A stretch of 64,000 nt of DNA from sequence record PV654397.1; one strand, given 5' to 3'. A model generated the notes under the pieces. It did not search any database and was not told the DNA's origin. It saw only the letters and a program-made list of their open reading frames with translations. The number at the start of each line of letters is the position of its first letter. The stretch's first letter is position 1. This document shows positions 63,105 through 63,295 of this stretch, piece by piece. Position numbers and translations under genes: made by a program. Source of the DNA: Escherichia phage WPEC5.

Positions 63105-63295
63105 TGATTTAGCCGTCTATACTTCCAGACGTGTAACCATCTAGCCGTTTAGCCATCCAGCCATCCAGAAATCTAGCCGTTTAGCCGTCTAGATGGATAG
63201 CCATCTTTACTTCCAGACTTCTGGAGGGCTAGACATATCTACGCCCAAAATCCATCCAGGGTAACTACACCCAAAATCCGTCAGTACTATACCAT
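63105..63295. repeat. Iteron-like cluster of short direct repeats
   Basis: Repeated TAGCCGT(T/C)TA, CCATCCAG and TACTTCCAGAC units in a non-coding stretch. Confidence 0.5.

Follow-up and report, generated by a model that had tools for sequence, protein, structure and literature searches.

Short-repeat arrays are said to flank the terminal repetition of phage T7, with a heptamer-type unit, CCTAAAG, at irregular spacing, and Spo0A boxes are reportedly present near the ends of the phi29 genome. The nearest precedents for the locus described here are the DnaA-box proposal for the injection-stop region of T5 (Davison, bioRxiv 10.1101/866236) and the CtrA sites of alphaproteobacterial phages, where a lytic phage likewise carries operator sites for a host regulator of cell state (PMC9437464). 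In T5, 'Repeat Region 3', at the inner end of the left terminal repeat, is the presumed injection-stop-signal region (Davison, bioRxiv 10.1101/866236); the injection-stop region has been known since 1987, as cited in the literature, and is unexplained to date. On the bacterial side, the operator of MetJ consists of gap-free 8-bp met boxes around the consensus AGACGTCT, natural met operators typically lie within ~75 bp of a translation start, and MetJ homologues are confined to the Enterobacterales, Pasteurellales, Vibrionales, Aeromonadales and Alteromonadales (PMC3228920).

The stretch of DNA analysed here (the window; 64,000 nt of Escherichia phage WPEC5, PV654397.1) belongs to an Asteriusvirus jumbo coliphage (PBECO4/121Q group, ~350-kb genomes; assigned from the matching records examined). 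It contains a run of 8-bp boxes for which, judging from the sequence and with moderate confidence, the best explanation appears to be a tandem MetJ operator array in the first kb of the genome, inside the direct terminal repeat (DTR), that would provide a landing pad for host MetJ-SAM. This locus differs from the CtrA and phi29 Spo0A cases in its candidate regulator, MetJ, in the arrangement of the sites as a single, very long and putatively cooperative array, and in the lack of any evident regulated phage gene.

A megablast search with 62400-64000 matched 41 phage records, 34 of which cover at least 80% of the query and 30 of which are 95-99% identical; all but one of the 41 are named as Escherichia or Salmonella phages. 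The window end (64000) corresponds to position 1, on the opposite strand, in the records of CRJP21, ELP-22, E9.1, fEgEco12, BF17 and vB_Ec-M-J. 'Direct Terminal Repeats' are annotated in vB_Ec-M-J at 1..21525, and the DTR of fEgEco12 measures 20,993 bp, its ends set by PhageTerm with restriction digests in agreement (PMC13070987). The mapped ends of fEgEco12 and the alignment to the record starts therefore place the physical genome terminus at position 64000. Within the window the DTR spans ~42.5-64 kb (42476-64000, ~21 kb) and its outer end, 62391-64000, is gene-free. The DTR genes are all small and all leftward; for several of them a promoter of the form TTGCAA-N16-TATAAT and, within the 5' leader, a GGGGA hairpin were read by eye. 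The outer region sits at the upstream end of this leftward gene array, as originally predicted. The prediction that the repeats overlap no ORF was likewise borne out: no credible gene covers the region, where ORFs reach at most 99 aa, and relatives differ in the array region by indels of 8, 16 and 32 bp that would break any reading frame. A coding explanation was rejected on both grounds. Between four and six 'hypothetical proteins' are called in this non-coding region in the records of SD-1_S14, JP4, SHEFM2K, E9.1 and others, and none in other records; for annotation, the consequence is that these calls in several public records are probably spurious. The ten genes nearest the array encode only DUF7249 paralogues and families of unknown function, and no replication-initiator or other DNA-binding domain was found among them with Pfam and PHROGs. 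Two paralogous small early proteins match DUF7249 (PHROG 871; 61638-61916 and 59596-59865, minus strand), both beginning with a MAK/MAS...K(N/T)(Y/F)..HKNKTHWNVSLWINN motif. The outer end of the DTR contains the following features.

62391-64000, no strand assigned: terminal non-coding region of 1.6 kb, the outer end of the ~21-kb DTR, with 64000 aligning to position 1 of six Asteriusvirus records.
62644-62671, plus strand: P1, promoter TTGACT-16-TATAAT, followed by a conserved leader (scan and alignment).
From 62860, plus strand: P1-paralogous unit, TTGCTT-16-TATAAT.
62985-63013, plus strand: P2, sigma-70-like promoter TTGACA-17-GATAAT, pointing at the array, which starts ~95 nt downstream (promoter scan).
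63049-63069, plus strand: GGGGA hairpin GCGGGGAAACTATCCCCACGC in the P2 leader (read from the sequence).
63111-63238, no strand assigned: array of 16 head-to-tail 8-bp boxes with the consensus A-G-(A/C)-C-N-T-C-(T/C) (Tandem Repeats Finder and MetJ matrix).
63241-63277, plus strand: two copies of AC(G/A)CCCAAAAT directly after the array (repeat search and alignment).
63404-63423, no strand assigned: inverted Chi octamer pair, CCACCAGC-ttgt-GCTGGTGG, ~580 bp from the terminus.
63608-63635, minus strand: Pin, sigma-70-like promoter TTGACT-16-TATAAT, ~370-390 bp from the terminus, reading inward and convergent with P2.
63760-64000, no strand assigned: terminus-proximal conserved blocks, namely GGTACTCCAAAATTT and GACTTC in the last ~20 nt (five-way alignment).

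The original prediction described three iteron-like units repeated within 63105-63295, close to promoters and GGGGA hairpins. The repeats do lie there and are non-random: TAGCCGTYTA occurs four times (63110, 63142, 63174 and 63182; 0.10 expected) and has no copy elsewhere in the 64 kb, TACTTCCAGAC occurs twice (63120 and 63208; 0.02 expected) and CCATCCAG three times (63153, 63161 and 63252; read from the sequence). They are not separate repeats, all being fragments of one gap-free array with an 8-bp period that, in register, is narrower (63111-63238) than the interval proposed. The tandem-repeat analysis suggested as a check gave a period of 8 with 10.4 copies at 63110-63192 (Tandem Repeats Finder), and the start-to-start spacings in a repeat search are 8 and 16 only. 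In register from 63111, boxes 1-6 are AGCCGTCT ATACTTCC AGACGTGT AACCATCT AGCCGTTT AGCCATCC, boxes 7-12 are AGCCATCC AGAAATCT AGCCGTTT AGCCGTCT AGATGGAT AGCCATCT and boxes 13-16 are ttacttcc AGACTTCT ggagggct AGACATAT, so that 13 different boxes make up the 16. The array lies 760-890 bp (about 0.8 kb) from the terminus, with sigma-70-like matches on both strands around it and one GGGGA hairpin nearby, at 63049-63069, in agreement with the prediction. The iteron-like label has to be dropped, since iterons are 17-22 bp on helical phase and the unit here is 8 bp, head-to-tail and without spacers. A replication origin with such iterons, one of three functions proposed at the time, is very improbable for the same reason. 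It would suit a repeat-rich non-coding region with promoters in Rak2-like phages, which have T4-like replication proteins, and T4-type origins use promoter-derived R-loops; against it, no DnaA boxes (nor any LexA or Fur boxes) were found in the non-coding region 62391-64000, no initiator gene lies nearby, and the array is also present in the 260-bp terminal repeat of a T7-like phage (PGT2).

The boxes were scored with the met-box matrix and thresholds of Augustus & Spicer 2011, by which a MetJ site has at least two adjacent boxes, each with at least 1/4 of the consensus score, and a site total of at least the consensus score (PMC3228920), one consensus box being worth 12.58 bits. Twelve consecutive in-phase boxes (63111-63206) pass, with 84.85 bits against the 12.58 required, and over the whole array 14 of the 16 do so. 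The longest in-phase run in the rest of the 64-kb window is 2 boxes (total at most 14.3 bits), 100 Markov-random 64-kb sequences gave longest runs of 2-3 boxes (at most 22.4 bits), and 1.05% of all 8-mers lie above the single-box threshold. As positive controls, the scan recovered the E. coli metJ/metB (4 boxes, 31.2 bits) and metF (4 boxes, 24.9 bits) operators, whose 6.2-7.8 bits per box are bracketed by the 6.0-9.8 of the phage arrays. Like the E. coli met operators (metJ/metB, metF and others), the phage array has gap-free tandem 8-bp boxes around the same consensus, here all in a single phase (63111-63238). CTAG-type junctions, the range of scores per box and a host with MetJ (metJ is annotated in E. 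coli K-12) are shared as well. It differs from them in length, phage arrays having 12-28 consecutive boxes against 4 in metJ/metB and metF by one scan, and that of the window 3-4 times the run length of these two operators; in its boxes, which are polar and AGCC-rich on one strand; and in its place on a virulent phage genome, neither overlapping a promoter nor close to a start codon, whereas the E. coli met operators precede methionine genes. TrpR sites (CTAG spaced 8 bp) were considered and rejected, by inspection only, because the bases around CTAG fit MetJ (GTCTAGAC) and not TrpR (ACTAGT).

A match to the matrix or to a loose pattern is not proof on its own, since perfect 8-bp microsatellites fit the pattern in many MetJ-less bacteria. 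Near-perfect microsatellites of this period (AGCCGTCC, GAACGGCT and AAAAGTCT, for example) turn up frequently across many bacterial phyla and in viral contigs, and they satisfy the loose met-box pattern. A four-box pattern scan of bacterial genomes had microsatellites from many phyla among the matches listed and is uninformative on taxonomic restriction. The same type of scan in IMG/VR gave 31 stretches, mostly perfect 8-bp microsatellites, with heterogeneous arrays only in known T5-like phages and two T5-like-looking contigs. The boxes of the present array are heterogeneous, and it is therefore unlike the near-perfect microsatellites. A neutral, slippage-driven minisatellite without function would account for a box number that shifts fast among close relatives, and perfect 8-bp microsatellites do exist in many genomes; we nevertheless regard it as extremely improbable, because 81-100% of heterogeneous boxes pass a matrix that 1% of 8-mers pass, and because the array keeps its position in three genera, whose flanks have a mean identity of 56%, and recurs in three phage families.

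Among ten Asteriusvirus genomes the arrays have 7-24 boxes, differ by whole boxes only and always keep their phase. More distant relatives were found by sensitive BLAST with 63000-63420, which matched Eneladusvirus (Serratia phage BF and six Erwinia phages) and Mimasvirus (CBB and XbC2) over the array part only, at 70-80% identity and 715-860 bp from the record start, which was taken as the terminus as the Eneladus- and Mimasvirus records end in a homologous block and the CBB repeat is annotated from position 1. A five-way alignment of 1.4 kb has a mean column identity of 56%. By the MetJ matrix, 13/16 boxes pass in BF, 13/15 in CBB and 14/16 in XbC2, while a neutral-decay simulation with 20-30% substitution leaves 47-29% of boxes passing. 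Pass rates above neutral decay, together with changes by whole boxes only, therefore point to selection on phase and box quality. The order of elements is conserved in the five-way alignment as well: from the gene side, P1 with its hairpin-capable leader is followed by a leftward promoter and P2, then by a block CGCGGAAGGGGA.CTAATGG, the array starting with invariant TTTAGCCGTC, and TAGTACACCCAAAATTC, and finally by an AGTACT-rich stretch with Pin (63635-63608), GGTACTCCAAAATTT and the terminus. The alignment further shows a conserved block, CGCGG(A/T)AGGGGA.CTA.TGG, after the GGGGA hairpin and immediately ahead of the array; TAGTACACCCAAAATTCAGAC is conserved in BF and CBB, and more copies of AC(G/A)CCCAAAAT occur at 62718 and 62934.

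In total, 95 records match the array by BLAST, including T5-like Demerecviridae and the Autographiviridae Ermolevavirus phages PGT2 and phiKT. Three groups thus have the array: Rak2-like jumbo myophages, non-Tequintavirus Demerecviridae and Ermolevavirus podophages. Members of the latter two groups scored as follows.

Aeromonas phage AhSzq-1, T5-like: 28/28 boxes pass, 221 bits.
Vibrio phage Pontus, T5-like: 16/17 boxes pass.
Vibrio phage pVp-1, T5-like: 9/9 boxes pass.
Providencia phage PR1, T5-like: 9/9 boxes pass, 9.8 bits per box.
PGT2 and phiKT, Ermolevavirus: 9/9 boxes pass.

Serratia phage BF and coliphage PGT2 have an identical 21-nt string, TTTAGCCGTCTAAACGTCTAG, in common (noted by eye). 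For similar arrays in the terminal repeats of the two other phage groups, no description was found in open-access full text, nor was any literature linking met boxes or MetJ with phage genomes. The arrays of the Vibrio, Aeromonas and Providencia T5-like phages lie in the untranslated region corresponding to T5 Repeat Region 3 and have TTATCCACA DnaA boxes and a CTGTAT..ATACAG palindrome as neighbours. No array is present in T5 itself, whose met-box runs never exceed 2 and whose dispersed GTGCAAATCCGAC and DRC/DRE repeats were rejected as an equivalent, differing as they do from an 8-bp array. The jumbo-phage region resembles Repeat Region 3 in being an untranslated, repeat-dense region of more than 1 kb at one end of a long DTR of small early genes, and differs from it in that T5 has DRC/DRE repeats and no array at that position. 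DnaA boxes were found in T5, Pontus, AhSzq-1, pVp-1 and PR1 and none in the window region; the T5-type region has them paired within the IRD'/IRC' inverted repeats, while the window has neither these nor the LexA-type palindrome. Two-step DNA transfer, dependent on the A1/A2 proteins, is a feature of the T5-type region; no such transfer is known for Asteriusvirus, whose region is likened to that of T5 from sequence layout. At every T5-like locus, a perfect LexA-box-type CTGTAT..ATACAG palindrome stands beside the DnaA boxes ('palindrome D' of T5, TACTGTATAAATATACAGTA), at position 533 in the T5 locus and at 784, 3905, 4202 and 2691 in the others, with none in the 64-kb window. The DRC repeats of T5 resemble Fur boxes (4 matches with at most 5 mismatches in 2 kb). 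It may be that host-repressor sites are clustered in the T5-type injection-stop region. With the short-repeat arrays of T7, the phage array shares short direct repeats next to or inside the DTR, PGT2 belonging to the same family as T7 (Autographiviridae), and it differs from them in its unit, the T7 repeats having no gap-free 8-bp register and no met-box resemblance.

The array always lies inside the DTR near one boundary, and the distance of 715-860 bp from the record start is kept in Eneladus- and Mimasvirus, with the window edge being an experimentally supported terminus. These observations would fit a packaging or terminus-processing signal of the concatemer junction, akin to the T7 short-repeat arrays or to accessory sites of cos/pac and read by terminase with or without a host accessory factor; IHF acts at lambda cosB. 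Such a signal, another of the functions first proposed, is improbable. The distance to the cut varies from 38 bp to ~0.8 kb: PGT2 has a DTR of 260 bp (1-260 and 42427-42686, unannotated in the record) with its 72-bp array at 38-109, the jumbo phages have ~760-890 bp and PR1 has ~770-840 bp, in this case from the annotated DTR end at the opposite DTR edge to the jumbo phages. The jumbo-phage array region is upstream of the DTR genes, that of PR1 downstream. In addition, the groups sharing the array come from different families, whose terminases and packaging enzymes we take, from general knowledge, to be unrelated, and the conserved blocks at 63760-64000 are better candidates for a cut-site signal. 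The variable distance from array to DTR edge counts against a MetJ operator array too.

The third function proposed, a binding array for a regulator, fits best, although the regulator indicated is host MetJ and not a phage protein. The phages with the array have as hosts Escherichia, Salmonella, Serratia, Erwinia, Pectobacterium, Cronobacter, Providencia, Vibrio and Aeromonas, all in MetJ-bearing orders. The sole listed host outside these orders is Xanthomonas (X. vesicatoria), recorded for Mimasvirus XbC2; either the host range of XbC2 includes enterobacteria or the array needs no MetJ. No phage-encoded MetJ homologue was found by tblastn of phage records, where only host-contaminated records match. 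With one array in three groups, hosts that have MetJ, no phage MetJ and no DNA-binding domain nearby, the simplest explanation is therefore a host factor common to all three groups.

Several properties of the array argue against MetJ nonetheless. Foremost, the two-fold box symmetry expected of a MetJ operator is absent, C at position 3 occurring 70 times against 15 for its mirror G6 (p = 1e-9) and C8 40 times against 10 for G1; the excess of C3 over G6 is present in every lineage with the array, and a symmetric dimer does not require such strand polarity. C at box position 3 reaches ~50% in phage arrays against 10% in natural met boxes (~5x), and T at position 5, disfavoured by the matrix, reaches 31% in Demerecviridae arrays. 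Placement over or near the promoter of a repressed gene, as expected of a MetJ operator, is not seen either: no promoter match lies inside the array and no gene follows it, while the natural operators scanned have 4 boxes and such operators typically lie near the translation start. Finally, XbC2 keeps its 14/16 boxes on the recorded Xanthomonas host. The polarity may reflect shared ancestry, an added strand-specific constraint (transcription, entry or packaging) or another binding protein. The last of these would be a phage protein of ribbon-helix-helix type or another host factor that reads polar 8-bp direct repeats, the met-box likeness being partial or convergent. Omega repressor, a ribbon-helix-helix protein, polymerises on 7-bp heptads, and omega-type proteins bind short-repeat arrays. 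Another protein of this kind would be favoured by the consistent polarity, which MetJ binding leaves unexplained, by the over-representation of C3 and T5 and by the retention of the array in XbC2, and we consider it fairly unlikely. One binding protein would be needed in three phage groups from different families, the phage records have no MetJ homologue and the ten nearest genes no DNA-binding domain, and we know of no other factor with gap-free 8-bp tandem sites.

Strand polarity would also be explained if the array worked as RNA or as a single strand, the P2 transcript being C-rich (a possible Rho-loading site) and the Pin transcript G-rich (possibly a protein sponge or a former of R-loops). 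On either side of the array there are promoter matches directed into it, identified by scan in the window and BF and by alignment reading in CBB and XbC2, the plus-strand promoters of BF, CBB and XbC2 scoring below the scan threshold. A promoter-like element (TTGCAT -35) stands at the P2 position in BF, CBB and XbC2 (alignment); the Pin homologue of BF is TTGACG-17-TATGAT (scan), a similar match in CBB was read from the alignment, and the distance from array to Pin is ~400 nt. BF furthermore has a terminator-like hairpin with a T-run at the far edge of the array on the Pin strand, and the polarity relative to early-gene direction is equal in jumbo phages, PGT2 and PR1. Against this, no Rfam match was found in the whole window at gathering threshold or in 62300-64000 at a permissive one, the best-conserved positions are box edges and CTAG junctions, which suit a reader of duplex DNA, and not GGA/YC motifs, and the 37 bp between terminus and array in PGT2 are too little for a preceding promoter on a linear genome. 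A function as RNA or single strand hence appears quite improbable. A CsrA sponge on the G-rich strand was rejected, as GGA motifs are not a conserved feature of the boxes.

Promoter-like units reading rightward, antisense to the genes, lie at 62644-62770 and 62860-62950, with similar ones near 58340-58460 and 60740-60930, each with a short conserved leader containing CCCAC(C/A)GGGTGC and ACGCCCAAAAT; they are candidate small RNAs that match no Rfam family. The P1 leader can form a long hairpin, in which GGGTGCGG (62706-62713) pairs with CCGCACCC (62755-62762), conserved in BF, CBB and XbC2.

Chi octamers are strongly enriched in the DTR, with 9 + 2 copies against ~0.1 expected per strand and one more in the other 42 kb. 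CCACCAGC occurs at 43699, 43923, 45502, 46906, 49264, 50531, 51994, 56517 and 63404, and GCTGGTGG at 56579 and 63416, forming inverted pairs at 63404/63416 and 56517/56579. By the usual orientation rule, RecBCD that enters at the inner-left DTR edge would meet the nine bottom-strand sites in active orientation, and RecBCD that enters at the terminus would so meet the site at 63416, 585 bp from that end. Chi pairs flank the arrays in PR1 and EJP2, too. The enrichment suggests that the genome ends are built to turn RecBCD into a recombinase. The whole window has 260 copies of the palindrome AGTACT, where 17 are expected, and 59 of CAGTACTG, where the expectation is 0.78. AGTACT is absent from 26180-34693 and 36750-42469, and its first DTR copy (42470-42475) is at the DTR boundary. 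Copies often stand just upstream of the -35, or in the spacer or extended -10, of early promoters, many others are outside promoters, and the terminal regions of BF and CBB are dense in AGTACT as well.

For the tandem MetJ operator array that we favour, the role we prefer is that of a nucleoprotein block or insulator, formed with MetJ-SAM and acting in cis at the end of the genome. After entry of the phage DNA, host MetJ carrying S-adenosylmethionine (SAM) would bind cooperatively along ~100-130 bp, one dimer per 8-bp box, and the coated stretch may act in cis as a SAM-dependent block or insulator between the convergent host-RNA-polymerase promoters P2 and Pin. In this way, the methionine/SAM state of the host would be coupled to transcription of the terminal region and possibly also to DNA entry linked to transcription or to the handling of DNA ends. 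The main alternative consequence of MetJ binding is a decoy, in which the array soaks up MetJ and relieves the repression of methionine and SAM synthesis. The decoy is less attractive because the location in the DTR and the polarity are conserved, and also because T5- and T7-type phages shut off the host early. The array may also help to process the terminus or to bring both copies of the DTR into contact.

More broadly, the DTRs of three unrelated virulent lineages could carry host-repressor operator arrays that load the first-entering DNA with host proteins, the T5-type injection-stop region being a host-repressor landing pad and Rak2-like phages having a comparable staged or checkpointed genome entry, or a synapsis of the ends, that depends on the SAM, SOS or replication status of the host. 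We put this generalisation forward tentatively and think it rather unlikely. The sites concerned may be the MetJ boxes in the window, MetJ boxes with the LexA-type palindrome and DnaA boxes in T5-like phages, and Fur-like sites in T5.

If MetJ coats the array, virulent phages would have a new way to read or exploit host metabolism, and jumbo, T5-like and T7-like phages would all have enlisted a host sensor of SAM and methionine at an end of their genomes. For the relatives of T5, this would provide the injection-stop region with a concrete, testable protein partner. The array also opens simple experiments on the poorly understood ~350-kb jumbo phages that are considered for therapy.
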